Assembly (NCBI GenBank): GCA_947303585.1
Contig: CAMYYT010000003.1
Coordinates: 1 to 59,918 of the forward strand
Direction: 5' to 3'
DNA length: 59,918 bases
Origin: an uncultured Pseudomonadota bacterium
GTDB taxonomy: Bacteria > Pseudomonadota > Alphaproteobacteria > Rs-D84
Shown: positions 9,065 to 29,707 of the stretch, piece by piece
Position numbering within the stretch: the first letter of the stretch is position 1
Layout: each line of letters begins with the position of its first letter
Made by a program: the position numbers and the translations under genes
Notes under the pieces: model-generated
What the model was told of the DNA's origin: nothing
Databases searched by the model: none
What the model saw: only the letters and a program-made list of their open reading frames with translations

Positions 9065-9928
9065 ATGTTTCATAAAATTTGTGTTTTTATGGCGGCGGCT
9101 GGTGTTACGGGCTTTGCTATGGCTGAAGTTTTACCCCAGGTTGTCACATCCGAAGTTTTTGGTGATGTCGAAGAAGAAGTTGTTGAAGATGTTGTTCGTT
9201 ATGAACGACCTGTGATTCAACAAGATGTTCCTGCATGGCCTTTGGTTGGGTCCGAAGCGGATGTTGAAATAGCTTGTGGAGAACCAGGATGTGCCCAAGA
9301 AGATAAGATTGTGACCAAAGTTGGCCCCAGTTTGGTTATCGAAAACAATATCAACACGATTGGAACGGGTTGGTCCGGTGGTCCGAATATAAATAATGGC
9401 TTTATGATTCCTGCGGGGTTCGATTATGAATGTGCGAACAATGCGGAAATGCCGTTGATGCGTCGTGAAATGATGGAAGATGATGGCGGGTCTGTTTTGG
9501 CAATGTCGCGCAGCGCGCGCAAAAATTGTAATCAACAGTCTGATTCTTATGCGGTGTTTGCGCAACGCGCTGGTTTTGCACCTGAAAAAACATGTGATAA
9601 GGCTGCGTCTGATGGAACGATGGTTGCGGTTAATGAATATGCGGACGAAGAAAGTTCAGGTTTGACGCAAGACCAGGTTCGTTCTTGGGTTGTGACAAGT
9701 GGTCAGACTTTGCGCGAAGTTTTGCAATCTTGGTGTGACAAAGAAGGTTGGGATTTGGTTTGGACGACTGCGCGTGAATATCCAATAGAAGCAAGCGCTG
9801 TGTTCAAAGGACGTTTTGTGGATGTTGCGTCTGCGTTGGTTCGTAATTTTGAACGTGCAACACCGATTCCTTATGCGAAATTTTACAAAGGAAATCGTGT
9901 GATTGTTGTTTCTACAAATGAAGAATAA
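9065..9928 (+). CDS. Secreted protein with a TcpQ/PilL-like C-terminal domain (287 aa)
   Basis: Signal peptide MFHKICVFMAAAGVTGFAMA. The C-terminal ~85 aa (WVVTSGQTLREVLQSWCDKEGWDLVWTTAREYPIEASAVFKGRFVDVASALVRNF) resemble the TcpQ/PilL domain that partners type IVb lipoprotein secretins. Confidence 0.55.
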   Translation: MFHKICVFMAAAGVTGFAMAEVLPQVVTSEVFGDVEEEVVEDVVRYERPVIQQDVPAWPLVGSEADVEIACGEPGCAQEDKIVTKVGPSLVIENNINTIGTGWSGGPNINNGFMIPAGFDYECANNAEMPLMRREMMEDDGGSVLAMSRSARKNCNQQSDSYAVFAQRAGFAPEKTCDKAASDGTMVAVNEYADEESSGLTQDQVRSWVVTSGQTLREVLQSWCDKEGWDLVWTTAREYPIEASAVFKGRFVDVASALVRNFERATPIPYAKFYKGNRVIVVSTNEE

Positions 9929-9963: not shown

Positions 9964-11595
9964 ATGAAAATGCGTTTTTATATATCTTTAATTGGTTGTT
10001 TGACAGGAATTCTGTTGGCGGGCTGTACATTACATGAATCTGCCAAAGTGTCCGCCGAAGTTGACCAAAACTTCGTCAATGCGTATGAGGCTTTTGAAAT
10101 GGCGAAAAATCCACGCGCCAAGGTGGCAAGTGGTGATACGGTCACTATGTCCGAAGGTGTGTGGTTGGGAAACAAATCTACATTACAGGAACACAAAAAT
10201 TCTTTGCCGGCCAAGTTTGAAACAGATACGGGTGTTACAATTTTGTTAAATGAACCTGTGACATTGCAAGTTTTGGCTAATGATATAAATTCTATTACAG
10301 GAATTCCTGTAAAGATAGATAGCCAAGTGGATACTGAAAAATTAAGAAAAACTGTGGATGTGGCTTATACTGGCAAATTATCTGGTTTGCTTTCGCAAAT
10401 TGCGACAGATTTAGATTTGCTTTGGTATTATGACAAAGATGCAATTGTGTTTTATGAAACAGAAACCAGAACATATACTTTGTATGCGTTGGGGACAGAT
10501 GTTTCATATCAATCTTCTGTCCAAACAGATAGCGGAAATCAAGTGTCTTTGGAATCTACCTTGAAAGAATGGGATGAAGTAGAATCTACTATTAATTCTA
10601 TTATAAATAATTCTAAGAATGCACAATTCACCGTATCGCGCAGTTTGGGAACAATAACCGTGACTGCGGCGCCATCTGTGTTGAATCGCGTTGGTGAATA
10701 TATCGCAAAACAAAATAAGCGCCTGTCTCAATTGGTGACGATTGATGTTAAGGTATTGCAAGTGTCTTTGGCAAATAATTCTGCGTTTGGTTTGAATTTG
10801 GCTGCGGCGATTAATTCTGCTTCTGGGTTGAATATCGTTGCAAATCCAAAGAATAATTTATCTTTGACAGAATCAAGTTCTATGAATGTCGCGGTGTTGT
10901 CTAACGCGGTTTCTGCTTTGACTGGGGCAACGCACATAGATGCAAGTGGTGCTGTGGTTGATGGAGCGTATACAAATGATCAAATTAATAATGGTTCAAT
11001 GGCAAGAATTGCTGGAACAAATGCTTTGATAGAAGCTTTGGCAAAGCAGGGCAAAGTGTCACTTGTTACAAATGTTGGGGTTACAACGCGTAATAATCGT
11101 GTTGCGCCTGTAACAAACACCAAGACAACAGGTTATATTAAACGTTTTGAATCAAGAACATTTACAACTGTGGAATCAAGTACTGTGGACCAGGCTGATT
11201 TGGAAACAGGTTTTTCAATGCAGTTATTACCAAATGTTTTGGAAAACGGAAAGATATTATTGTTGTTCAAAATGTCTGTGCGCGAATTGTTAAAGATGTC
11301 TTCTCAGACAATTGGTGCGGTCACATTGCAATTACCAGAAGTAGAAGAACGTTCATTTATGCAAGAAGTTATAATGGAATCTGGGCAAATGTTGGTTGTG
11401 TCTGGGTTTGAAAAGCAAAAGAACGACGATACAAGATATGGTTTGGGCGATGCTGACTTTATGGCTTTGTCTGGTTCTCGTGAAACATCTGCATCTCGTG
11501 AAGTTTTGGTTGTTATCTTGACGCCACAGGTTTTGGTAAGTCCGATGGATGCAGAACGTAGTATACAACAACATTGGGGCGCCCCCCTTAACTAA
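9964..11595 (+). CDS. Lipoprotein secretin (PilN/TcpC/BfpB-like), 543 aa
   Basis: Lipobox GILLAGC. C-terminal secretin-like blocks VTIDVKVLQVSL, GFSMQLLPNVLENGKILLLFKMSV, GQMLVVSGFEKQ, REVLVVILTPQVL. The N-terminal part resembles secretin N-domains. Confidence 0.7.
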   Translation: MKMRFYISLIGCLTGILLAGCTLHESAKVSAEVDQNFVNAYEAFEMAKNPRAKVASGDTVTMSEGVWLGNKSTLQEHKNSLPAKFETDTGVTILLNEPVTLQVLANDINSITGIPVKIDSQVDTEKLRKTVDVAYTGKLSGLLSQIATDLDLLWYYDKDAIVFYETETRTYTLYALGTDVSYQSSVQTDSGNQVSLESTLKEWDEVESTINSIINNSKNAQFTVSRSLGTITVTAAPSVLNRVGEYIAKQNKRLSQLVTIDVKVLQVSLANNSAFGLNLAAAINSASGLNIVANPKNNLSLTESSSMNVAVLSNAVSALTGATHIDASGAVVDGAYTNDQINNGSMARIAGTNALIEALAKQGKVSLVTNVGVTTRNNRVAPVTNTKTTGYIKRFESRTFTTVESSTVDQADLETGFSMQLLPNVLENGKILLLFKMSVRELLKMSSQTIGAVTLQLPEVEERSFMQEVIMESGQMLVVSGFEKQKNDDTRYGLGDADFMALSGSRETSASREVLVVILTPQVLVSPMDAERSIQQHWGAPLN

Positions 11596-11620
11596 ATAAA
11601 TTATAATAATAAATCTGCTG

Positions 11621-11668
11621 GTTGTCGGCGCGTTTATGTAGGTCAACTACACTGCACTTGCCGACAAC
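11621..11668 (+). other. 9-bp inverted repeat (GTTGTCGGC ... GCCGACAAC) with a 30-nt loop
   Basis: Perfect complementary arms at 11621-11629 and 11660-11668, just downstream of the secretin stop. Confidence 0.5.
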
Positions 11669-11711
11669 TTCGCATTTTCATCATTCTAATTTATTTATAG
11701 TAAGAATATTC

Positions 11712-11740
11712 AACGGCGCATTTGCGCCGTTTTGTCTTTT
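11712..11740 (+). terminator. Rho-independent terminator after the secretin gene
   Basis: AACGGCGCA tt TGCGCCGTT followed by TTTTG/T-rich sequence. Confidence 0.7.
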
Positions 11741-11772
11741 GTAAAATTTTTTATTTTTTTCCCCTTAAAATA

Positions 11773-11781
11773 TGATATAAT
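11773..11781 (+). promoter_or_regulatory. Extended -10 element TGATATAAT
   Basis: TGnTATAAT at 11773-11781. No good -35 box. It lies ~20 nt upstream of the SD of the leader ORF, and the sequence is identical to the -10 at 9024-9032. Confidence 0.45.
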
Positions 11782-11803
11782 GCATATCAAGAAAGGAATA
11801 AAA

Positions 11804-11896
11804 ATGTGTGTAACCAAATTGACAAAATTTGACAAAACGGCGCAAAGCCGCGGTTTTCTACACACACACACACACACACAGATAGTTCATTGCTAA
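11804..11896 (+). CDS. 30-codon leader-like ORF containing the (CA)10 tract: MCVTKLTKFDKTAQSRGFLHTHTHTQIVHC
   Basis: SD GAAAGGA 6 nt upstream of ATG 11804. Codons 20-25 (HTHTHT) are the dinucleotide repeat, and the stop TAA is at 11894-11896. It is below the ORF-track size cutoff. Confidence 0.4.
   Translation: MCVTKLTKFDKTAQSRGFLHTHTHTQIVHC
11860..11880. repeat. Perfect (CA)10 dinucleotide microsatellite
   Basis: cacacacacacacacacaca at 11861-11880. It is the only long dinucleotide SSR I saw in the window. Confidence 0.95.
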
Positions 11897-11940
11897 GCTT
11901 AAAGCAAATCGGGACGATTTGTTTTGCAACGAATTTTTAA

Positions 11941-11975
11941 CAGACCGAACGCATTGCGCGTTTGGTCTGTTTTTT
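11941..11975 (+). terminator. Strong intrinsic terminator (possible attenuator) upstream of the Cys-rich gene pair
   Basis: CAGACCGAACGC attgc GCGTTTGGTCTG forms a 12-bp stem with one G-U pair, followed by T6. It ends ~15 nt before AGGAG at 11990-11994. Confidence 0.7.
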
Positions 11976-12015
11976 GTTAAACACGAAAAAGGAGAACATA
12001 ACGAAATTTTTGGTG

Positions 12016-12420
12016 ATGATTTTAATGTTGGTGCCGATGATGTGTTTTGCAGAAGAGCCAAGTATGCAGATGCAAATGTTAGACAATGAAATCGAAAGAT
12101 TGACTAAGCAGCGGGATGAAAAATTTGCGGCGTTGCAAAAGTGTGAAGAAACAACCAAAGGCTTTAAGATAGCGGGCATTGCTACATTGGCTGCGACAGG
12201 TGTGGGAGTATACGGGAACATAAAACTATCACAAAAATTACAAGGCAAGGGCAGTAAAAAATCTGGTGGTGGCAGTGGTCTGAACACAAAGGTATTAAGT
12301 GCAAGTGAAAGCCAAAAACAGATGTGCGATGAAGAATGTGAAGGTTCTTATACAGATGAACACTGTATAGCACTTGATAAATGTTGGGCGGCTGCCCGTT
12401 CAGATTGTAGTTGTAAATGA
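12016..12420 (+). CDS. Secreted Cys-rich protein 1 (start uncertain: in-frame TTG 12010, GTG 12013, ATG 12016)
   Basis: Hydrophobic signal-like N-terminus (F)LVMILMLVPMMCFA|EEP, a coiled-coil-like segment, a GIATLAATGVGVYG hydrophobic stretch, a Gly/Lys-rich linker, and a C-terminal Cys cluster CDEECEGSYTDEHCIALDKCWAAARSDCSCK. The ORF-track start at 11962 lies inside the terminator stem. Confidence 0.55.
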   Translation: MILMLVPMMCFAEEPSMQMQMLDNEIERLTKQRDEKFAALQKCEETTKGFKIAGIATLAATGVGVYGNIKLSQKLQGKGSKKSGGGSGLNTKVLSASESQKQMCDEECEGSYTDEHCIALDKCWAAARSDCSCK

Positions 12421-12449
12421 TACTAACACAAAAAACAAAGGAGAAAAAA

Positions 12450-13049
12450 ATGAAAGTATCAAAAATAATGTTGGCATCATTATTAGGTGCTATCGCGATT
12501 AACAGCGTGATGGCTGATGAATATGATGGACCAAGAAACAGATGCAAGGCAAAATCAGACAAACATTGGGTTGAAAAAACAAAAGAATGCATACCGGCAA
12601 ATCCTTGTGATACCAATGTTGCAATAAATAACCCAGATGTATATAGTAAATATTGTACTGATTTTATAATGTCGGGGAGATTATCGAAGAATCAAGAGAA
12701 AATGGTTTATGATAAATATGTTGAACAGGTTTTAAAAACGAGAATAGTAGAACAGACATATAGTACAGCAACAGATCTTTCGCATATATTTTATGGTTTT
12801 ACATTACTAGATGGCGGCTATATTGTTTTTCAGCAAGAATTGGGGTTCAGTGAATCTGATAAGACACCAATACCTGCATTTGAAATCTGTCATGCTTATG
12901 GAAAAGGCACCTGTGGTGATGACTGTTGTTTAGGAGATTTTACCGATTCTCAATGTATAGAAATAGCAACTTTTGCTTCGACATTAACAGGTAAAACTTG
13001 TAACGGGACAATCGGTACATATTCTTGTAATATAAAGTGTGATGAATAG
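12450..13049 (+). CDS. Secreted Cys-rich protein 2 (199 aa)
   Basis: SD AAAGGAG 7 nt before ATG 12450. Signal peptide MKVSKIMLASLLGAIAINSVMA. About 12 Cys in the mature part. The C-terminal CGDDCCLGDFTDSQCIEI motif parallels protein 1. Confidence 0.65.
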   Translation: MKVSKIMLASLLGAIAINSVMADEYDGPRNRCKAKSDKHWVEKTKECIPANPCDTNVAINNPDVYSKYCTDFIMSGRLSKNQEKMVYDKYVEQVLKTRIVEQTYSTATDLSHIFYGFTLLDGGYIVFQQELGFSESDKTPIPAFEICHAYGKGTCGDDCCLGDFTDSQCIEIATFASTLTGKTCNGTIGTYSCNIKCDE

Positions 13050-13076
13050 TATTGTCGTTGGTAATTTATTTATGAA

Positions 13077-13122
13077 CATCGCCCATCCAGTTTTGCGGAA
13101 CAGGAATGGGTGGTGTTTTTTT
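13077..13122. terminator. Imperfect hairpin plus T7, bidirectional terminator between convergent genes
   Basis: CATCGCCCATCC ... GGAATGGGTGGTG followed by TTTTTTT. It lies between the 13049 stop (+) and the 13121 stop (-). Confidence 0.5.
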
Positions 13123-14229: not shown

Positions 14230-16053
14230 ATGTGTGGGATTTTCGGTTATTGTGGGAACAAAAAAGCATCTGAAATTTTAATCGAAGGTTTAAAACGTCT
14301 TGAATATCGTGGGTATGATTCTAGTGGTATTTGTGTTGGAAATGGTTCAAAATTTTCTGTGTATAAACGCGTTGGTAAAATAAAGGTGTTGGCAGATTCT
14401 TTGCCAGAAGAATCGTTCGGTCATAATGGAATTGCGCATACGCGTTGGGCTACGCATGGTGGTGTGACAGAAGCAAACGCGCATCCGCATACTGATTGTA
14501 ATGAAAAAATTGCCATAGTTCACAATGGTATTATTGAAAATTATCAACAATTAAAAGATAAATTATCAGCCAAAGGTCATAAGTTTAAATCTGAAACTGA
14601 TTCCGAAGTAATCGCTCATTTAATCGAAGAAGTTTTTGATGGTGATTTAACCAAAGCTGTGAAGCAAGTCTTACCAATGCTCAAAGGGACTTATGGTTTA
14701 ATCGCGATGCATGTTGATTGTCCTGATGTTTTGGTAGGGGCAAGAAATGGGTCGCCTTTGATTTTGGGGATTGGAAATAATGAAATGTTCTTGGCGTCCG
14801 ATGTTAATGCGATGGTGGCTTATACTAAACAAGTTGTATATTTGAACGACAAAGAAATTGTCACTGTGACACCAGATGGATTTACAACAAGTGATGTTCA
14901 AGATAACGCAATTCACAAAGATATTACTACGGTGGAAATTGATGGTGAATCTTTCGATAAACAAGGCTATGACCATTTTATGATGAAAGAAATTGCTGAA
15001 CAGACAGAAGCGATTAAACGCGGTATGGTCGGGCGCTTAAATATTGATGAAGCAACTGGACATTTGGGCGGTTTGAATATGGGAAATGCTCAATTGCTGG
15101 ATGTGGAACGCATTGTGTTGGTTGCTGCTGGGACTTCGTATTATGCGGGAATGACCGCCAGTTATTTAATCGAAAATTTAGTGCGGATTCCTGCGCATGT
15201 GGAATTGGCAAGCGAATTGAGATATAAAAATATTATCGTAGAAAAAAATACTTTGTATTTTGTGATTTCGCAATCTGGGGAAACAGCAGATACATTGTTC
15301 GCTTTGCGTGAATTACAGCGCAAGGGTGCGCATGTGTTGGGAATTTGTAACGCAGTTGGTTCTACGATTGCACGTGAAACTGATGGTGGGGTTTATATTC
15401 ATTCAGGACCAGAAATCGCCGTGGCATCGACCAAGGCATTTACTTCGCAATTAACTGCGTTGTATATATTTACTTTGTTGATGGCGCGCATCCGTCATTT
15501 GTCTTTTGAACAGGGCAGGGAATTTATCAATGCTTTTAATGAATTGCCTGCTTTGATTGAAGAGATTTTATCAGCAGATGACAAAATTGAACAAATCGCA
15601 GATAAATATTATAAATCTCAAAACTTTATGTTTATGGGGCGCGGAATTAATTATCCTGTGGCAATGGAAGGTGCTTTGAAATTGAAAGAAATTTCTTATA
15701 TTCATGCCGAAGGTTTTGGTGCAGGTGAATTAAAGCATGGCCCAATTGCGTTGATTAATGAACAAACACCGTCGTTCTTTTTGGTGCCTGACGATGCTTT
15801 GCGTGATAAAAATATTTCTAATATGAAAGAAGTCAAAGCAAGGGGTGGAAAAATTATCGCTGTGTGTACCAAGGGCGATGACGAAGTCAAAGAAATTGCA
15901 GATGATGTAATCGAAGTGCCTAAAATTATGCCTTGTTTTTATCCGTTCTTGTTGGTGGTGCCGTTGCAATTATTCGCATATCATTGTGCTGTGAAATTGG
16001 GACGTGATGTAGATCAACCACGCAATCTGGCAAAATCTGTTACGGTGGAATAG
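14230..16053 (+). CDS. glmS: Glutamine--fructose-6-phosphate aminotransferase
   Basis: N-terminal MCGIFGY nucleophile, two SIS-domain blocks (ISQSGETADT, GRGINYPVAMEGALKLKEISYIHAEG), C-terminal NLAKSVTVE. Confidence 0.95.
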   Translation: MCGIFGYCGNKKASEILIEGLKRLEYRGYDSSGICVGNGSKFSVYKRVGKIKVLADSLPEESFGHNGIAHTRWATHGGVTEANAHPHTDCNEKIAIVHNGIIENYQQLKDKLSAKGHKFKSETDSEVIAHLIEEVFDGDLTKAVKQVLPMLKGTYGLIAMHVDCPDVLVGARNGSPLILGIGNNEMFLASDVNAMVAYTKQVVYLNDKEIVTVTPDGFTTSDVQDNAIHKDITTVEIDGESFDKQGYDHFMMKEIAEQTEAIKRGMVGRLNIDEATGHLGGLNMGNAQLLDVERIVLVAAGTSYYAGMTASYLIENLVRIPAHVELASELRYKNIIVEKNTLYFVISQSGETADTLFALRELQRKGAHVLGICNAVGSTIARETDGGVYIHSGPEIAVASTKAFTSQLTALYIFTLLMARIRHLSFEQGREFINAFNELPALIEEILSADDKIEQIADKYYKSQNFMFMGRGINYPVAMEGALKLKEISYIHAEGFGAGELKHGPIALINEQTPSFFLVPDDALRDKNISNMKEVKARGGKIIAVCTKGDDEVKEIADDVIEVPKIMPCFYPFLLVVPLQLFAYHCAVKLGRDVDQPRNLAKSVTVE

Positions 16054-24904: not shown

Positions 24905-26485
24905 ATGAACATGTATCAATTTTTAGAGCAGGTGGCGAAAGAATCGCCAAATGCTTTGTATTTGGTACGCGAAAAAATCACATTTAAAGAAGTTCTGAGA
25001 TTAATTCAAGCACGTGCAACAACACTTAAAAAAGCCGGGATAAAGGCGGGGGATGTGGTTGGTTTGTTGGCGCATAATATTCCAGAATTTCCTGTGACGC
25101 TTTTTGCTATATGGTATTTGGGCGGGACAGTTTTGTTGTTAGATACAAATTTGACTCCGTTTGAATACGATAATATGACCAAAACTGTTAAGTGTAAATT
25201 TGTGTGCGCTGAAAAATCTTTTTTCTACAAGGCAAAGGGTTTTAAGTTTTTTGATATAGAAACCAAAGATGATAAGCGGGATACAAAGTTAAAACCGGCT
25301 AAATTGGGTGATGATGATATTGCGACATTGTCGTTTACTTCGGGTTCTACTGGTCAGCCAAAGGTTGTGCCATTAACACATGGTAATTTGAAGACTTCTT
25401 CGGATTGTTATGCAGATATGGGACAATGGATTCACAAAAACGAAATAATGTATGGTTTTTTGCCTCTTTACCATGTATTTGGTTTTGCAGCAGGTATTTT
25501 GGCACCTATGCATTTTCATATGGGAATTTTATTGCAACCTACAATTAATCCAAAAAATATTTTGGATGATTTCAAAACTTATAAACCACATTGTATACCT
25601 GCAGTTCCTCGTTTGTGGGAAGTTTTTCGTAATAAAATTATTGAGGGAATTAAAGCACAACATAAATGGTGGTTGGTATCTTTTGTTTTGAAACATCAAA
25701 AAGTTTTGAACAAAACAGGTTTTTCATGGCTGGTAAGAAAGGTTCAAAAACCATTACAAGATATTTTTGGTGGACGTGTCAATTTGATGATTGCAGGTGG
25801 CGCTGCTACAAAACCAGAAGTGGAAAGTTTTTATGAATCTTTGGGTATAGCTTTTGTTCAAGGATACGGAATGACTGAAACAGTAGGACCGTTTTGTTGT
25901 TCAAGACCGGTAAAACATCGGGTGCCGTTTGCGTTTGGAACGCCCGTGGGGTGTTCAGAATGTACAATAAGGGATGCTGATGAAACCGGGGTTGGAACTT
26001 TGTGGGTTCGCGGACCGAATATATTCAAAGGTTATTTGAATAATGAAGCTGCTAATCAAGAATTGTTCGACAAAGATGGTTGGTTTAATACTGGCGATTT
26101 AGTATATTTGGATAAGAACAAACAGTATCATTTTGCAGGTCGTAAAAAACAAGTGATTGTTTTAGACAGCGGTAAAAATGTTTATCCTGATGAATTGGAA
26201 GCGCTCTTTATGGATATTGAAGGCGTGAAAAATGTCGCTGTGTTTGAACACAAAGTCAAAGGTAAAACTGTGACTTATGGTGTGTTTCAGGTTGAAGATG
26301 ATATGACTATGGATAAATTGTCCAAGGAAATTGCAAATCAAAACAAAAAAGTTGCGTCTTATAAATGGGTAACGCATTTTGCAATGACAAGTGACGATTT
26401 GCCTGTGACCAGTACTCAAAAGGTTAAACATCATATTGTTCGTCAAAATTTAATAGATGGAAAATATCCAAAAAAACATGAATAA
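24905..26485 (+). CDS. ANL-superfamily acyl-AMP-forming ligase (acyl-CoA/acyl-ACP synthetase-like), paralog 1 of 3, 526 aa
   Basis: AMP-binding motif SFTSGSTGQPKVVPLTH, QGYGMTET, TGDL, GRKKQVIVLDSGKNVYPDELE, C-terminal TSTQKVKHH. Confidence 0.85.
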   Translation: MNMYQFLEQVAKESPNALYLVREKITFKEVLRLIQARATTLKKAGIKAGDVVGLLAHNIPEFPVTLFAIWYLGGTVLLLDTNLTPFEYDNMTKTVKCKFVCAEKSFFYKAKGFKFFDIETKDDKRDTKLKPAKLGDDDIATLSFTSGSTGQPKVVPLTHGNLKTSSDCYADMGQWIHKNEIMYGFLPLYHVFGFAAGILAPMHFHMGILLQPTINPKNILDDFKTYKPHCIPAVPRLWEVFRNKIIEGIKAQHKWWLVSFVLKHQKVLNKTGFSWLVRKVQKPLQDIFGGRVNLMIAGGAATKPEVESFYESLGIAFVQGYGMTETVGPFCCSRPVKHRVPFAFGTPVGCSECTIRDADETGVGTLWVRGPNIFKGYLNNEAANQELFDKDGWFNTGDLVYLDKNKQYHFAGRKKQVIVLDSGKNVYPDELEALFMDIEGVKNVAVFEHKVKGKTVTYGVFQVEDDMTMDKLSKEIANQNKKVASYKWVTHFAMTSDDLPVTSTQKVKHHIVRQNLIDGKYPKKHE

Positions 26486-26518
26486 TTAATTGTTGGTTTT
26501 AATAAAGGGATAGAAATT

Positions 26519-28099
26519 ATGAATATGTATCAATTGTTAGAAAAAAATGTAAAAAGAAATCCAAAAACAGTATTTTTGGTTCGTGAAAATGTGACTTTTG
26601 AAGAATTGCCAAGTTTGGTTCAAGCGCGTGCTACAACCTTGAAGAAAGCGGGTGTAAAACCGGGTGATGTTGTTGGTTTGCTTTCGCACAATTTACCGCA
26701 ATTTCCAATAACTTTGTTTGCAATATGGTATTTGGGTGGAACGGTTTTGTTGCTGGATACAAATTTAACACCTGTGGAATATGAAAATATGGCTAAAACA
26801 ACCAAGTGTAAATTTGTATGTGCTGAAAAATCTTTCTTTTATGATACAAAGAATTTTAAGTTTTTTGATATAGAAACCAAAGATGGCGCGGCAGACAAAG
26901 ATTTAAAGCCATATCCATTAAAAGACGAAGATATTGCAACTATGTCGTTTACTTCTGGTTCAACAGGTAAACCAAAAGTTGTACCATTAACACATTTTAA
27001 TTTGGTTTCTTGTTCTGATAATTTGGAATATCTTAATCAATGGTTAAAGCCAGGAGAAATGTTTTATGCGTTTTTACCTCTTTACCATGTGTTTGGCTTT
27101 GCAGTTGGATTTTTAGCACCTCTTCATTTCGGTATGGGAATTTTGTTGCAATCGACAATTAATCCTAATGCAATTATGGCAGATTTTGCGCAATATAAAC
27201 CACAGGTTATACCTGCTGTGCCAAAGTTGTGGGAAATTTTCCGCAAAAAGATTATTGATGGTATCAAGGCCAAGAAGAAGTGGTGGTTGGTATCATTTAT
27301 TATGAATAATCAAAAATGGTTGCGTATGATTGGATTAGGTAAATTGGTTGACAAAGTTTTGAATCAAATTCGCGCAGTATTTGGCGGCCGTGCTAGATTG
27401 TTGGTTGCTGGGGGTGCTGCGACAAAACCAGAAGTTGAAAAATTCTATACTCAATTGGGTATGGCGTTTGTTCAAGGTTATGGTATGACTGAAACAGTTG
27501 GACCAATTTGTTGTTCAAAGCCTTTGAAAAAACGTGTTCCGTATGCTTTCGGTGCGCCAATGGGTGACACGGTATGTGAAATTCGCAACAAAGACGAAGA
27601 TGGTATTGGTATGTTGTGGGTTCGCGGAAATCAAGTTTTGTGCGGATATATGGATAATGATGCTGCTAATAAAGAAGCTTTTGATAAAGACGGATTCTTC
27701 TGTACAGGCGATTTAGTATCCATGGATAAAAACGGTGAATTACATTTTGCAGGTCGCAAAAAACAAGTGATTGTTTTGGACAGTGGTAAAAATGTTTATC
27801 CTGATGAATTGGAAGGCTTGTTTATTGAAATACCTGGTGTAAAAAGTGTTGCTGTGTTTGAACACGAAATTAACGACAAAACTGTTGCGTACGGGGTATT
27901 TAGTGTGGAACCAGATATGACCATGGAAAAATTGGCAAAAGAAATTGCAGAAAAGAATAAAAAAGTTGCTTCATATAAATGGGTAACTCACTTTGCGATG
28001 ACAACTGATGATTTGCCTGTAACTAGTACACAGAAAATAAAACATCATGTTGTTCGCCAATGGTTGAAAGATGGCAAATATACAAATAGACACGAATAG
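26519..28099 (+). CDS. ANL-superfamily acyl-AMP-forming ligase, paralog 2 of 3, 526 aa
   Basis: Collinear with paralog 1 over its full length. SFTSGSTGKPKVVPLTH, QGYGMTET, GRKKQVIVLDSGKNVYPDELE, TSTQKIKHH. Confidence 0.85.
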   Translation: MNMYQLLEKNVKRNPKTVFLVRENVTFEELPSLVQARATTLKKAGVKPGDVVGLLSHNLPQFPITLFAIWYLGGTVLLLDTNLTPVEYENMAKTTKCKFVCAEKSFFYDTKNFKFFDIETKDGAADKDLKPYPLKDEDIATMSFTSGSTGKPKVVPLTHFNLVSCSDNLEYLNQWLKPGEMFYAFLPLYHVFGFAVGFLAPLHFGMGILLQSTINPNAIMADFAQYKPQVIPAVPKLWEIFRKKIIDGIKAKKKWWLVSFIMNNQKWLRMIGLGKLVDKVLNQIRAVFGGRARLLVAGGAATKPEVEKFYTQLGMAFVQGYGMTETVGPICCSKPLKKRVPYAFGAPMGDTVCEIRNKDEDGIGMLWVRGNQVLCGYMDNDAANKEAFDKDGFFCTGDLVSMDKNGELHFAGRKKQVIVLDSGKNVYPDELEGLFIEIPGVKSVAVFEHEINDKTVAYGVFSVEPDMTMEKLAKEIAEKNKKVASYKWVTHFAMTTDDLPVTSTQKIKHHVVRQWLKDGKYTNRHE

Positions 28100-28126
28100 T
28101 GATAAGGAAACAAAGGTAGGTACACA

Positions 28127-29707
28127 ATGAATATGTATCAAAAATTAGAAAATGCAGTAAATCAATGGCCAGAAAATTTATTTTTGGTCCGTGAAAATAT
28201 TACTTATTCTGAATTTTTAAATCAAGTGCGCGCACGTGCGACAACACTTAATAAAGCAGGGATAAAACCTGGGGATGTTGTTGGGATTTTATCTCATAAT
28301 TTACCCCAGTTTCCATTAACTTTGTTTGCTGTGTGGTATTTGGGCGCTACGGTTTTAATGTTGGATACAAATTTAACACCACGCGAATATGACAAAATGT
28401 GTGAAATTGCAGGATGCAAATTTGTATGCGGGGAACCTTCGTTCTTTTATAAAACAAATAAATTTAAGTTTTATGATATAACAAAGAAAGACGGCAGTAT
28501 TGATTATGATTTAAGGGCTTATCCTTCGGAATCAACAGATGTTGCGACTATGTCGTTTACTTCTGGTTCAACTGGGACTCCAAAGGTTGTACCGCTAACA
28601 CATTTTAATTTGGTAGAATGTGCAAATTCTTTGGAAGATATGTCTGATTATTATCATTCTGGCGAAATAATGTATGGCTTTTTGCCTTTGTATCATATAT
28701 TTGGGTTTGCTGTTTGTATATTAGGGACAATTCAATATGGTGGGGGACTGGTTTTGCAACCTGTGGTTAATCCAAAATATATTCTGGATGATTTTAAGAA
28801 ATTTAGACCACATGTTATCCCTGTTGTTCCGCGCGTTTTGGAATTGTTCCGTAACAAGATTATCGATGGAATGAAACAACAAAAGAAATGGCGCGTCGCA
28901 TCTTTCATTTTGAACAATCAAAAAACTTTGAAAGATATGGGGCTTGATTTTGTTGTTCGCAAAGTCCAAGAACCATTATTGGAAATTTTTGGTGGACGCG
29001 TCCGTTTGCTTATTGCAGGTGGTGCAGCCACTAAACCAGAAGTGGAAAATTTCTATGAATCTTTGGGGTTGGCTTTTATCCAAGGATATGGTTTAACAGA
29101 AACTGTCGGGCCAATTTGTATTTCTAAACCTACAAATAAAAGATTGGCTTATTCTGTTGGGGCGCCCACATCTAATAACGAATGCGAAATTCGTGACAAA
29201 GATGAAAACGGCGTGGGTATTTTATGGGTGCGTGGACACCAAGTGTTTAATGGCTACCTTAATAATGACGAAGTCAACGCGACAGTATTTGATGAAAAAG
29301 GTTTCTTTAATACTGGCGATATGATGTATATGGATAAAAATGGCGAATTACATTTTGCAGGTCGTAAAAAACAAGTGATAGTTTTGGACAGCGGTAAAAA
29401 TGTTTATCCAGATGAATTAGAAGGCTTGTTTATGGAAATAGACGGGGTTAAAAATGTTGCTGTGTTTGAACACAAAGTGGGGGACAAAACTGTTGCATAC
29501 GGCGTATTCCAAGTTGAACCAGGTATGACAATGGAAAAATTGGCTGCCGCAGTTGCCGAAGCAAACAAGAAAGTGGCATCTTATAAATGGGTGACGCACT
29601 TTGCGATGACAACCGAAGATTTGCCGATGACCAGCACTCAAAAAGTCAAACATCATATTGTTCGACAGAAGTTAATTGATGGGGAATATCCTGAAAGACA
29701 CGAATAA
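28127..29707 (+). CDS. ANL-superfamily acyl-AMP-forming ligase, paralog 3 of 3, 526 aa
   Basis: Collinear with paralogs 1 and 2. SFTSGSTGTPKVVPLTH, QGYGLTET, GRKKQVIVLDSGKNVYPDELE, TSTQKVKHH. Confidence 0.85.
   Translation: MNMYQKLENAVNQWPENLFLVRENITYSEFLNQVRARATTLNKAGIKPGDVVGILSHNLPQFPLTLFAVWYLGATVLMLDTNLTPREYDKMCEIAGCKFVCGEPSFFYKTNKFKFYDITKKDGSIDYDLRAYPSESTDVATMSFTSGSTGTPKVVPLTHFNLVECANSLEDMSDYYHSGEIMYGFLPLYHIFGFAVCILGTIQYGGGLVLQPVVNPKYILDDFKKFRPHVIPVVPRVLELFRNKIIDGMKQQKKWRVASFILNNQKTLKDMGLDFVVRKVQEPLLEIFGGRVRLLIAGGAATKPEVENFYESLGLAFIQGYGLTETVGPICISKPTNKRLAYSVGAPTSNNECEIRDKDENGVGILWVRGHQVFNGYLNNDEVNATVFDEKGFFNTGDMMYMDKNGELHFAGRKKQVIVLDSGKNVYPDELEGLFMEIDGVKNVAVFEHKVGDKTVAYGVFQVEPGMTMEKLAAAVAEANKKVASYKWVTHFAMTTEDLPMTSTQKVKHHIVRQKLIDGEYPERHE

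Follow-up and report, generated by a model that had tools for sequence, protein, structure and literature searches.

The described system closest to the locus considered here is the leader region of the Streptococcus gallolyticus pil1/pil3 genes (Danne et al. 2014, PMC3894217), where a premature terminator lies behind a leader-peptide gene with GCAGA repeats. Mutagenesis of pil1/pil3 gave low expression when the leader stop lay at least 28 nucleotides (nt) upstream of the hairpin (39 base pairs (bp) in the reference strain) and high expression when it lay immediately upstream of, within or beyond the hairpin, where the ribosome prevents the hairpin from forming (PMC3894217). The locus compared with it lies in a stretch of 59,918 nt, the whole of which is called the window, and comprises a short leader open reading frame (ORF) carrying a (CA)10 tract, an intrinsic terminator and two genes for secreted Cys-rich proteins, ORF1 and ORF2. 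This segment is probably a stochastic on/off switch of the pil1 type for ORF1 and ORF2.

A comparison of the two systems reveals a common architecture. Found in the window are a promoter-proximal leader ORF led by a Shine-Dalgarno (SD) sequence, a variable simple sequence repeat (SSR) within it whose unit is not a multiple of three, a premature intrinsic terminator before the structural genes and a leader stop that shifts with repeat number from far upstream of the hairpin to a position adjacent to or through it. The distance rules of pil1/pil3 fit as well, with the short frames of the window ending 54 and 43 nt upstream of the stem and the long frame at its base. In both cases the cargo is of surface type and its expression stochastic, as predicted for the window. 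The components themselves are different. The repeat of pil1/pil3 is the pentanucleotide GCAGA in 13–23 units, the host is a Firmicute and the cargo is a sortase pilus operon, whereas the window locus has the dinucleotide CA (6–16 units at the locus), belongs to an uncultured Gram-negative alphaproteobacterium, shows no sequence relationship to pil1/pil3 and carries two small secreted Cys-rich proteins as cargo. A conserved 21-nt motif and a conserved hairpin have no counterpart in pil1, and the module of the window also stands at the head of in-frame fusions elsewhere. The pil1/pil3 switch was shown experimentally, whereas that of the window is predicted from sequence. The sequence-only reading that preceded this analysis knew of no described case in which an SSR in a leader sets the position of the ribosome, a statement overtaken by pil1/pil3, which shows this mechanism (PMC3894217). 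What is new here is the different repeat, the different phylum, the modular cassette with two modes and the extra conserved elements; the mechanism itself is precedented.

A second group of related systems controls translation directly. Helicobacter pylori oipA and other outer membrane protein (OMP) genes carry CT repeats in the region coding for the signal peptide and undergo translational phase variation (PMC10564699). As in oipA and in Neisseria opa, where the repeat is CTCTT, 71 of the 113 cassettes of the family described below place a non-triplet repeat between start codon and signal peptide, with one frame ON and two OFF. The window tract, unlike these, lies outside the structural gene. 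Between it and ORF1 come a stop codon, a terminator and an SD belonging to ORF1 itself, every leader frame in the window is closed by position 11940, and the feature that characterizes opa and oipA, a repeat within the coding sequence of the regulated protein as part of one continuous ORF, is absent.

Control of termination by the position of a ribosome is also familiar from Escherichia coli. At pyrBI and rph-pyrE, a ribosome close behind the polymerase at or through the terminator hairpin prevents termination with no antiterminator helix, and in E. coli K-12 the rph-1 frameshift, which moved the upstream stop away from the pyrE attenuator, reduces pyrE expression. These operons sense uridine triphosphate via polymerase pausing and are not hypermutable, and the frame effect of rph-1 is an accident. 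Because the principle works at pyrBI and rph-pyrE without an antiterminator helix, the fact that the sequence-only reading could find no such helix by eye is no obstacle to a switch of this kind in the window. The locus would share with trp and his attenuation a translated leader, an intrinsic terminator and a dependence on ribosome position, and its conserved hairpin could correspond to a pause hairpin. In contrast to trp and his, it has no regulatory codons and no alternative antiterminator, and its input would be genetic, in the form of repeat number, rather than metabolic.

Leader, terminator and alleles

The proposed switch would operate as follows. A constitutive extended −10 promoter would produce a transcript that starts with the translated leader ORF holding (CA)n. 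Slipped-strand mispairing would alter n, and n mod 3 would pick one of the three leader frames. In the two short frames the ribosome would leave the RNA 54 nt (TAG 11883) or 43 nt (TAA 11894) before the terminator, allowing the 14-bp hairpin and its U6 run (11939–11975) to form and yielding a ~190-nt RNA, the OFF or low state. When n is 6, 9, 12 and so on, the ribosome would pass the conserved hairpin (hairpin 1) and reach the long-frame TAA at the base of the terminator stem, the last two bases of this codon being the first two of the stem. There it would cover the 5' arm while the polymerase transcribes the U-run, no hairpin would form and the polymerase would enter ORF1 and ORF2, turning ON two fast-evolving secreted Cys-rich proteins. 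The window as assembled, with n = 10, is predicted to be OFF. We infer leader translation, terminator activity and control by ribosome position.

The elements involved are collected in Table 1. The extended −10, the SD, the 30-codon ORF and the (CA)10 tract had all been placed here by the sequence-only reading and were recovered at the same coordinates from the sequence, the ORF list and Tandem Repeats Finder (TRF), which finds the tract to be the sole dinucleotide array in the 59.9-kb window. Frame stops for each repeat number, recomputed by script from ATG 11804, reproduce those worked out earlier by hand for 9, 10 and 11 units, and 12 units end at the same stop as 9. The stem and T6 described ahead of the AGGAG of ORF1 are likewise present, the stem being 14 bp long with 7 G-C pairs and a folding energy of −22.6 kcal/mol (z = −6.4 against shuffles). 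The whole unit from promoter to terminator folds well (z = −4.9). Rfam searches of the whole window at the gathering score bring only two tRNAs to threshold, and a permissive search of 11600–12100 returns sub-threshold chance matches only. A consensus scan of the + strand between terminator and ORF1 found no sigma-70-like site, although such a pattern scan could miss an unusual promoter; the interval between the T-run and ATG 12016 is only 37 nt. On the upstream side, the terminator of the TcpQ-secretin unit (terminator 1) shields the leader promoter from upstream transcription.

Table 1. Features of the window discussed in the text, in order along the forward strand.
Feature	Position	Strand	Remarks
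TcpQ-domain protein	9065-9928		Upstream of leader
Secretin gene	9964-11595		Upstream of leader
REP-like unit	11606-11711	+	9-bp inverted repeat GTTGTCGGC (11621-11629) / GCCGACAAC (11660-11668); downstream of secretin gene
Terminator 1 (TcpQ-secretin unit)	11712-11740	+	8-bp stem and T-run; terminator scan
Leader promoter, extended −10	11773-11781	+	TGATATAAT; read from sequence
Leader SD and start codon	11793-11806	+	AAGGA 11793-11797, ATG 11804; 6 nt between
Leader ORF	11804-11896	+	30 codons as assembled with n = 10; predicted OFF frame
21-nt motif	11840-11860	+	GCGCAAAGCCGCGGTTTTCTA; family consensus GCTGAAASCCGCAGAAnnCTA; directly 5' of tract
(CA)10 tract	11861-11880	+	TRF: (AC)10.5 at 11860-11880, 100% pure
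TAG, early stop	11883-11885	+	n = 2 mod 3 (e.g. 11 units); +3 to +5 after tract
TAA, early stop	11894-11896	+	n = 1 mod 3 (7, 10, 16 units); +14 to +16 after tract
Hairpin 1, conserved	11900-11926	+	12-bp stem, 3-nt loop, core AAACAAATCG-GNA-CGATTTGTTT; −10.5 kcal/mol, z = −4.6
TAA, long-frame stop	11938-11940	+	n = 0 mod 3 (6, 9, 12); +58 to +60 after tract
Terminator/attenuator	11939-11977	+	14-bp stem 11939-11952 / 11958-11971, 5-nt loop, T6 11970-11975; terminator scan
SD before ORF1	11990-11994	+	AGGAG; conserved in all alleles
ORF1	12016-12420	+	Small secreted protein, Cys-rich C-terminus; start per public gene calls
ORF2	12447-13049	+	Secreted Cys-rich protein; own SD, clear signal peptide

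Two further pairings in this region were considered and set aside. The AUGUGUGU start region pairs with the CA tract in the minimum-energy fold, but L194 has AUGUAUGU at this place, and the pairing is not a conserved feature. Bases 11830–11845 are the exact reverse complement of 11721–11736, which include the 3' arm and T-run of terminator 1, and are the source of spurious microRNA-like Rfam matches. A function for these 16 nt was rejected on account of uncompensated single-nucleotide polymorphisms (SNPs) in L195, and the complementarity is probably a coincidence or the product of a shared hairpin ancestry.

The same locus was recovered from five other metagenome assemblies via the two closest ORF1 homologues (L194; L195–L198). 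L195, L196 and L197 have the gene order of the window (TcpQ, secretin, ORF1, ORF2, a gene of 104 amino acids (aa) and GlmS), as does L198, whose contig ends within the 104-aa gene, and L194 is a short contig running from the end of the secretin gene to the start of ORF2. In all five, the REP unit, terminator 1, promoter, leader, tract, hairpin 1, TAA and second terminator can be read between secretin and ORF1. A repeat number that stayed invariant among relatives would speak against a switch, a check that the sequence-only reading had itself proposed. Once run, it revealed 6 units in L198, 7 in L195, 10 in the window, 12 in L194 and 16 in both L196 and L197. L198 and L194 are thereby in the long frame and predicted ON, while L195, the window, L196 and L197 are in a short frame and predicted OFF. 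Between promoter and ORF1 the CA tract is the only length change among the alleles.

The sequence around the tract is held constant. The −10 element is the same in every allele row covering its site, and the leader AAGGA and ATG 11804 are unchanged in all rows covering both. Identity to the window is 97–100% for the promoter and 5' untranslated region (promoter segments compared in four alleles, L194, L195, L196 and L198), 95–98% for the leader, 91–97% for the tail and hairpin 1, 97.5–100% for the attenuator terminator in four other alleles and 97–100% for the spacer. The secretin gene, taken as a comparison, is 97–98% identical. The terminator differs by one SNP only, G11947A, through which a G.U pair becomes A-U and the stem pairs better. 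The cargo of L195–L198, in turn, has only 81% (ORF1) and 64% (ORF2) nucleotide identity to the window. On these alignments the locus reads as a conserved regulator placed before diversifying, surface-type cargo.

A family of (CA)n cassettes

Among 81 secretin loci, a search for CA runs found only four further long tracts (L004, L007, L009 and L019). The same motif, AAASCCGCRGnnnnCTA, stands ahead of all four, and the five long tracts, including that of the window, were found without reference to it. When metagenomes were scanned for this motif with 6 or more CA units behind it, 108 stretches came up, sampled from the rumen, the termite gut and other guts. Including the window, the genome and metagenome contigs that were fetched contain at least 113 instances of the family, 81 of which are distinct in their flanks, and its tracts range from 6 to 26 CA units.

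Members share a 5' module composed of an extended −10, an SD, a start codon, the 21-nt motif, (CA)n and frame-specific stops. A TGnTAwAAT element lies 56–130 nt upstream of the tract in 32 of the 81 distinct members. Positions flanking the motif that the search pattern did not force are 75–93% conserved (GCTG, 75–85%; TA at +3/+4 past the tract, 88–93%), and TAA or TAG occupies +3 to +5 past the tract in ~88% of members. Depending on the position of the start codon, the 21-nt motif reads ...AETRRNL(HT)n or ...LKPAETY(TH)n; it has a stop in the first frame in L019, and its common form (GCTGAAA...) has TGA in the third. Since the motif is read in two frames, its conservation is at the nucleotide level. 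No inverted copy of the motif was found in any locus, and inversion or shufflon-type switching was rejected.

Repeat number varies between near-identical loci of the family as well: 13 units in L085 and 12 in L177, 17 in L100 and 19 in L155, 22 in L103 and 21 in L138, 13 in L089 and 10 in L147, 7 in L125 and L126 and 11 in L154, and 7 in L083 and 12 in L141. A different kind of change is seen in L166 and L180, which agree completely from the tail through the terminator and for at least 330 nt beyond, and differ upstream of the motif, in the start codon and SD region. This pattern suggests that recombination at the motif or tract swaps the promoter-proximal part.

The family uses its module in two ways. 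In the in-frame mode (71 of 113 members), one frame runs from the tract through a signal peptide into the long ORF of a secreted protein. Read from its sequence, this mode is classical translational phase variation. From the best SD-linked start, ~14 of 69 fused members are in frame as assembled, and one fused gene is found in two states, ON in L177 (n = 12) and OFF in L085 (n = 13). The fused cargo includes Listeria-Bacteroides-repeat proteins, a PKD-like protein and an ABC exporter. The fused member L009 has a 22-nt direct duplication (CCACATACGCAAAAGATTCAA...) at L009:7787-7910, just past the signal peptide, which causes a further frameshift; a second switch, a pseudogene or an artefact of assembly could account for it. 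The idea of a small peptide whose C-terminus, IVHC/VIYC, is conserved was considered and discarded, this conservation being explained by the TTGCTAAGC codons and the stop that family members share.

In the putative attenuator mode, the tract leads into a short tail, behind which come a strong terminator, unrelated in sequence from locus to locus, and a complete gene with its own SD. This arrangement is present at 12 independent loci: the window, L107, L115, L123, L135, L141/L083, L163, the L166/L168/L180 group, L176, L189, L084/L095 and L087. The distance from T-run to cargo start codon is 18–47 nt. At each of the 12, the stop of one frame falls inside the stem, past it or at most 5 nt ahead of it, whereas that of at least one other frame lies 15–56 nt upstream. 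One locus is found in both predicted states, stopping 43 nt before the stem in L083 (n = 7) and reading through the stem in L141 (n = 12). L107 has a homologous tail, hairpin 1 and a terminator with compensatory changes, among them one G-C to A-U change in the terminator homologue, in front of unrelated cargo; a proposed homology of that cargo to ORF2 was dismissed at E = 1.3.

Of the cargo proteins in the attenuator mode, that of L189 is an Opa-like OMP beta-barrel, that of L084 a secreted ankyrin-repeat protein and that of L168 a Listeria-Bacteroides-repeat protein; several others are without known family, and some of these have no signal peptide. Because secreted and surface proteins are among them, this cargo fits contingency genes. 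Because some of it has no signal peptide, the attenuator mode would suit phase-variable proteins unable to accept an N-terminal His-Thr repeat. L175 differs from both modes. It has no terminator, and at +56 to +60 past its tract the TGA of its long leader frame overlaps the ATG of the next gene (ATGA), a layout that suggests phase variation by translational coupling.

The tail of the cassette contains a further conserved structure. Two mutually exclusive hairpins had been proposed around the leader stop. The one at 11905–11921 is real, extends to 11900–11926 and is conserved (hairpin 1), whereas its competitor at 11890–11907 is missing from the minimum-energy fold and is not conserved in relatives. 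Hairpin 1 occurs in 27 family members, 20–28 nt past the CA tract, and in their alignment 95.6% of cells are paired and 3 pairs have changed on both sides. In fused genes it lies within the codons for KQIGTICF. Among 21 distinct sequences, the synonymous sites of its conserved 10-bp core are fixed, with the exception of the divergent L107 copy, which carries compensatory changes. The fixed sites include a rare Thr codon, ACG, that is required for pairing, and the third position of the Gly codon, in the loop, varies freely. At the closing pair the window has U.G, L195 has U-A and L194 has C-G. Hairpin 1 ends 11 nt before the U-run 11934–11938, which directly precedes the terminator. This is the geometry of a hairpin-dependent pause, which could keep ribosome and polymerase in step.

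Alternative explanations

The pil1-type switch is favoured because the same locus is polymorphic in repeat number, its regulator is conserved while its cargo diverges, the layout recurs at 12 loci and the mechanism has a precedent. Several observations weigh against it. Shuffled tails reach the terminator in some frame at a rate of 0.53–0.97 per locus, with a product of ~0.06 over the 12 loci that is not significant, so the frame geometry taken alone is no evidence and is not statistically compelling. In ORF1 no canonical start codon lies at the usual spacing from the SD, the first ATG being 21 nt past AGGAG. TTG 12010 and GTG 12013 are alternative starts, and ACG 12001 aligns to the GTG start of the L002 homologue, which there stands at ideal SD spacing. 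This layout (ACG 12001; TTG, GTG and ATG at 12010–12016) is identical in all alleles and is therefore not an assembly error. Four of the six alleles share one OFF frame. The ON stop lies at the base of the stem and not inside it, which demands tight coupling of transcription and translation, and the effect could be partial. The tail of the window (11881–11929), moreover, shares homology with the beginning of the signal peptide in fused members, L007 for example (80% over 106 nt, ending at 11929), and its open frame could be inherited and not selected. The attenuator form, as these sequences suggest, probably derived from a fused gene by recombination.

That homology, together with the preponderance of in-frame fusions in the family (71 of 113), would also be expected of a fossil, that is, of a phase-variable gene whose body was replaced by recombination, leaving a promoter, a start, a tract and the first 16 signal-peptide codons before an unrelated terminator. 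In that case ORF1 and ORF2 would either be silent or owe their expression to a constant leak-through independent of repeat number. The non-significant shuffle test, the lack of a well-placed canonical start in ORF1 and the absence of the whole cassette from two sister strains are in keeping with this explanation. A fossil should decay, yet in the alleles compared the leader, both early stops, long frame, hairpin 1 and terminator are intact and 91–100% identical while the cargo diverges. L107, moreover, retains the tail-plus-terminator layout and both hairpins, with compensatory changes, in front of other cargo; the layout exists at 12 independent loci; and ORF1 is open in three strains, with mostly amino-acid-changing variation. 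A fossil is thus unlikely. Somewhat less likely again is that the terminator is overcome by a factor specific for the 21-nt motif, the CA tract or hairpin 1, with tract length rather than frame tuning expression; an RNA-binding antiterminator, a NusG/RfaH-like loader or Rho loading on the G-free CA run could play this part. Such a factor would account for the conservation of the motif as nucleotides read in two frames and for the invariant synonymous sites of hairpin 1 outside its loop, neither of which the frame model explains. The same motif and hairpin are nevertheless present in fused genes lacking a terminator, the analysis identified no candidate for the factor, and the conserved stops straight after the tract in two frames make sense only if frame matters.

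The ~190-nt unit might instead be a gene of its own, encoding a small RNA or a His-Thr-repeat peptide of 30–44 aa with an SSR-switched C-terminus, with ORF1 and ORF2 expressed by other means. Its own promoter, strong terminator and good folding (z = −4.9) agree with this. No Rfam family matches it, however, no promoter was found for ORF1, family members show no conservation of the leader peptide ahead of the tract, and the C-terminus of the short frames consists of codons and stops common to the fused genes, which together make an independent gene very improbable. Beyond the pil1-type switch in the window, a broader proposal concerns the family as a whole, which may, tentatively and with some doubt, be regarded as a portable phase-variation cassette that these gut symbionts with reduced genomes put ahead of many surface genes in two modes, in-frame fusion for secreted proteins and ribosome-position attenuator for complete genes, and whose motif and hairpin have a dedicated function at the nucleic-acid level. 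Candidates for this function would be the promotion of slippage, a recombination joint that swaps promoters and cargo, and a site for a factor coupling ribosome and polymerase.

Cargo, genomic setting and significance

ORF1 has 112 homologues, none of them informatively named, the few that bear a name being called 'hypothetical protein', and Pfam has no family for ORF1 or ORF2. Compared with strain L192, ORF1 carries 15 amino-acid-changing and 7 silent differences with no insertions or deletions and the frame kept, and 21 of these 22 lie inside a Gly/Ser-rich hypervariable linker (12216–12286). ORF2 differs from that of L192 at one position in 603 nt. An 82%-identical homologue of ORF1 in L199 (L199:380-495) has an ordinary TGGTACAAT promoter and no CA leader, and the gap there from an SD-like sequence to the ATG is equally long.

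The block 11625–13106, which holds the REP unit, terminator 1, the leader, ORF1 and ORF2, is absent from the sister strains L001 and L191, where flanks 98–99% identical to the window enclose, in its place, a short spacer that is unrelated and has a terminator of its own. The block is present in a third strain, L192. The L190 and L192 contigs end before the leader, and L190 has a variant block with a different ORF2. The REP-like unit, ~100 nt long, varies in its number of tandem copies, with 1 in the window and 2 in L194, L196 and L197; L017 contains 3 matches (L017:7601-7912) and L016, L018 and L025 single ones. GlmS lies at 14230, downstream of ORF1 and ORF2. Exact-protein look-ups gave no record for ORF2, secretin, TcpQ or ORF1, and led from GlmS and its 104-aa neighbour to the sister strains. 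Elsewhere in the window, three tandem ORFs of exactly 526 aa each occupy 24905–29707 on the + strand.

Relatives of the secretin at 81–97% identity are all from rumen or gut metagenome-assembled genomes labelled Alphaproteobacteria or Candidatus Enterousia, and the source of the window is a Candidatus Enterousia-like gut alphaproteobacterium with a reduced genome. Candidatus Enterousia belongs to the uncultured order Rs-D84, with genomes below ~1 Mb (PMC12306168).

A literature search for SSR-controlled leader-peptide attenuation gave a single species. The appearance of the same logic at 12 independent loci of gut Alphaproteobacteria, built from unrelated sequence, suggests a general and convergent route by which genes or operons become phase-variable with their coding sequence untouched. 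The family also provides more than 100 natural constructs differing in repeat number, tail and terminator, which could be used to relate ribosome position to read-through. Candidatus Enterousia and its relatives in Rs-D84 appear to devote many loci to the stochastic switching of fast-evolving secreted proteins, which is the lifestyle signature of bacteria that depend on a host or partner, Mycoplasma, Neisseria and Helicobacter among them.

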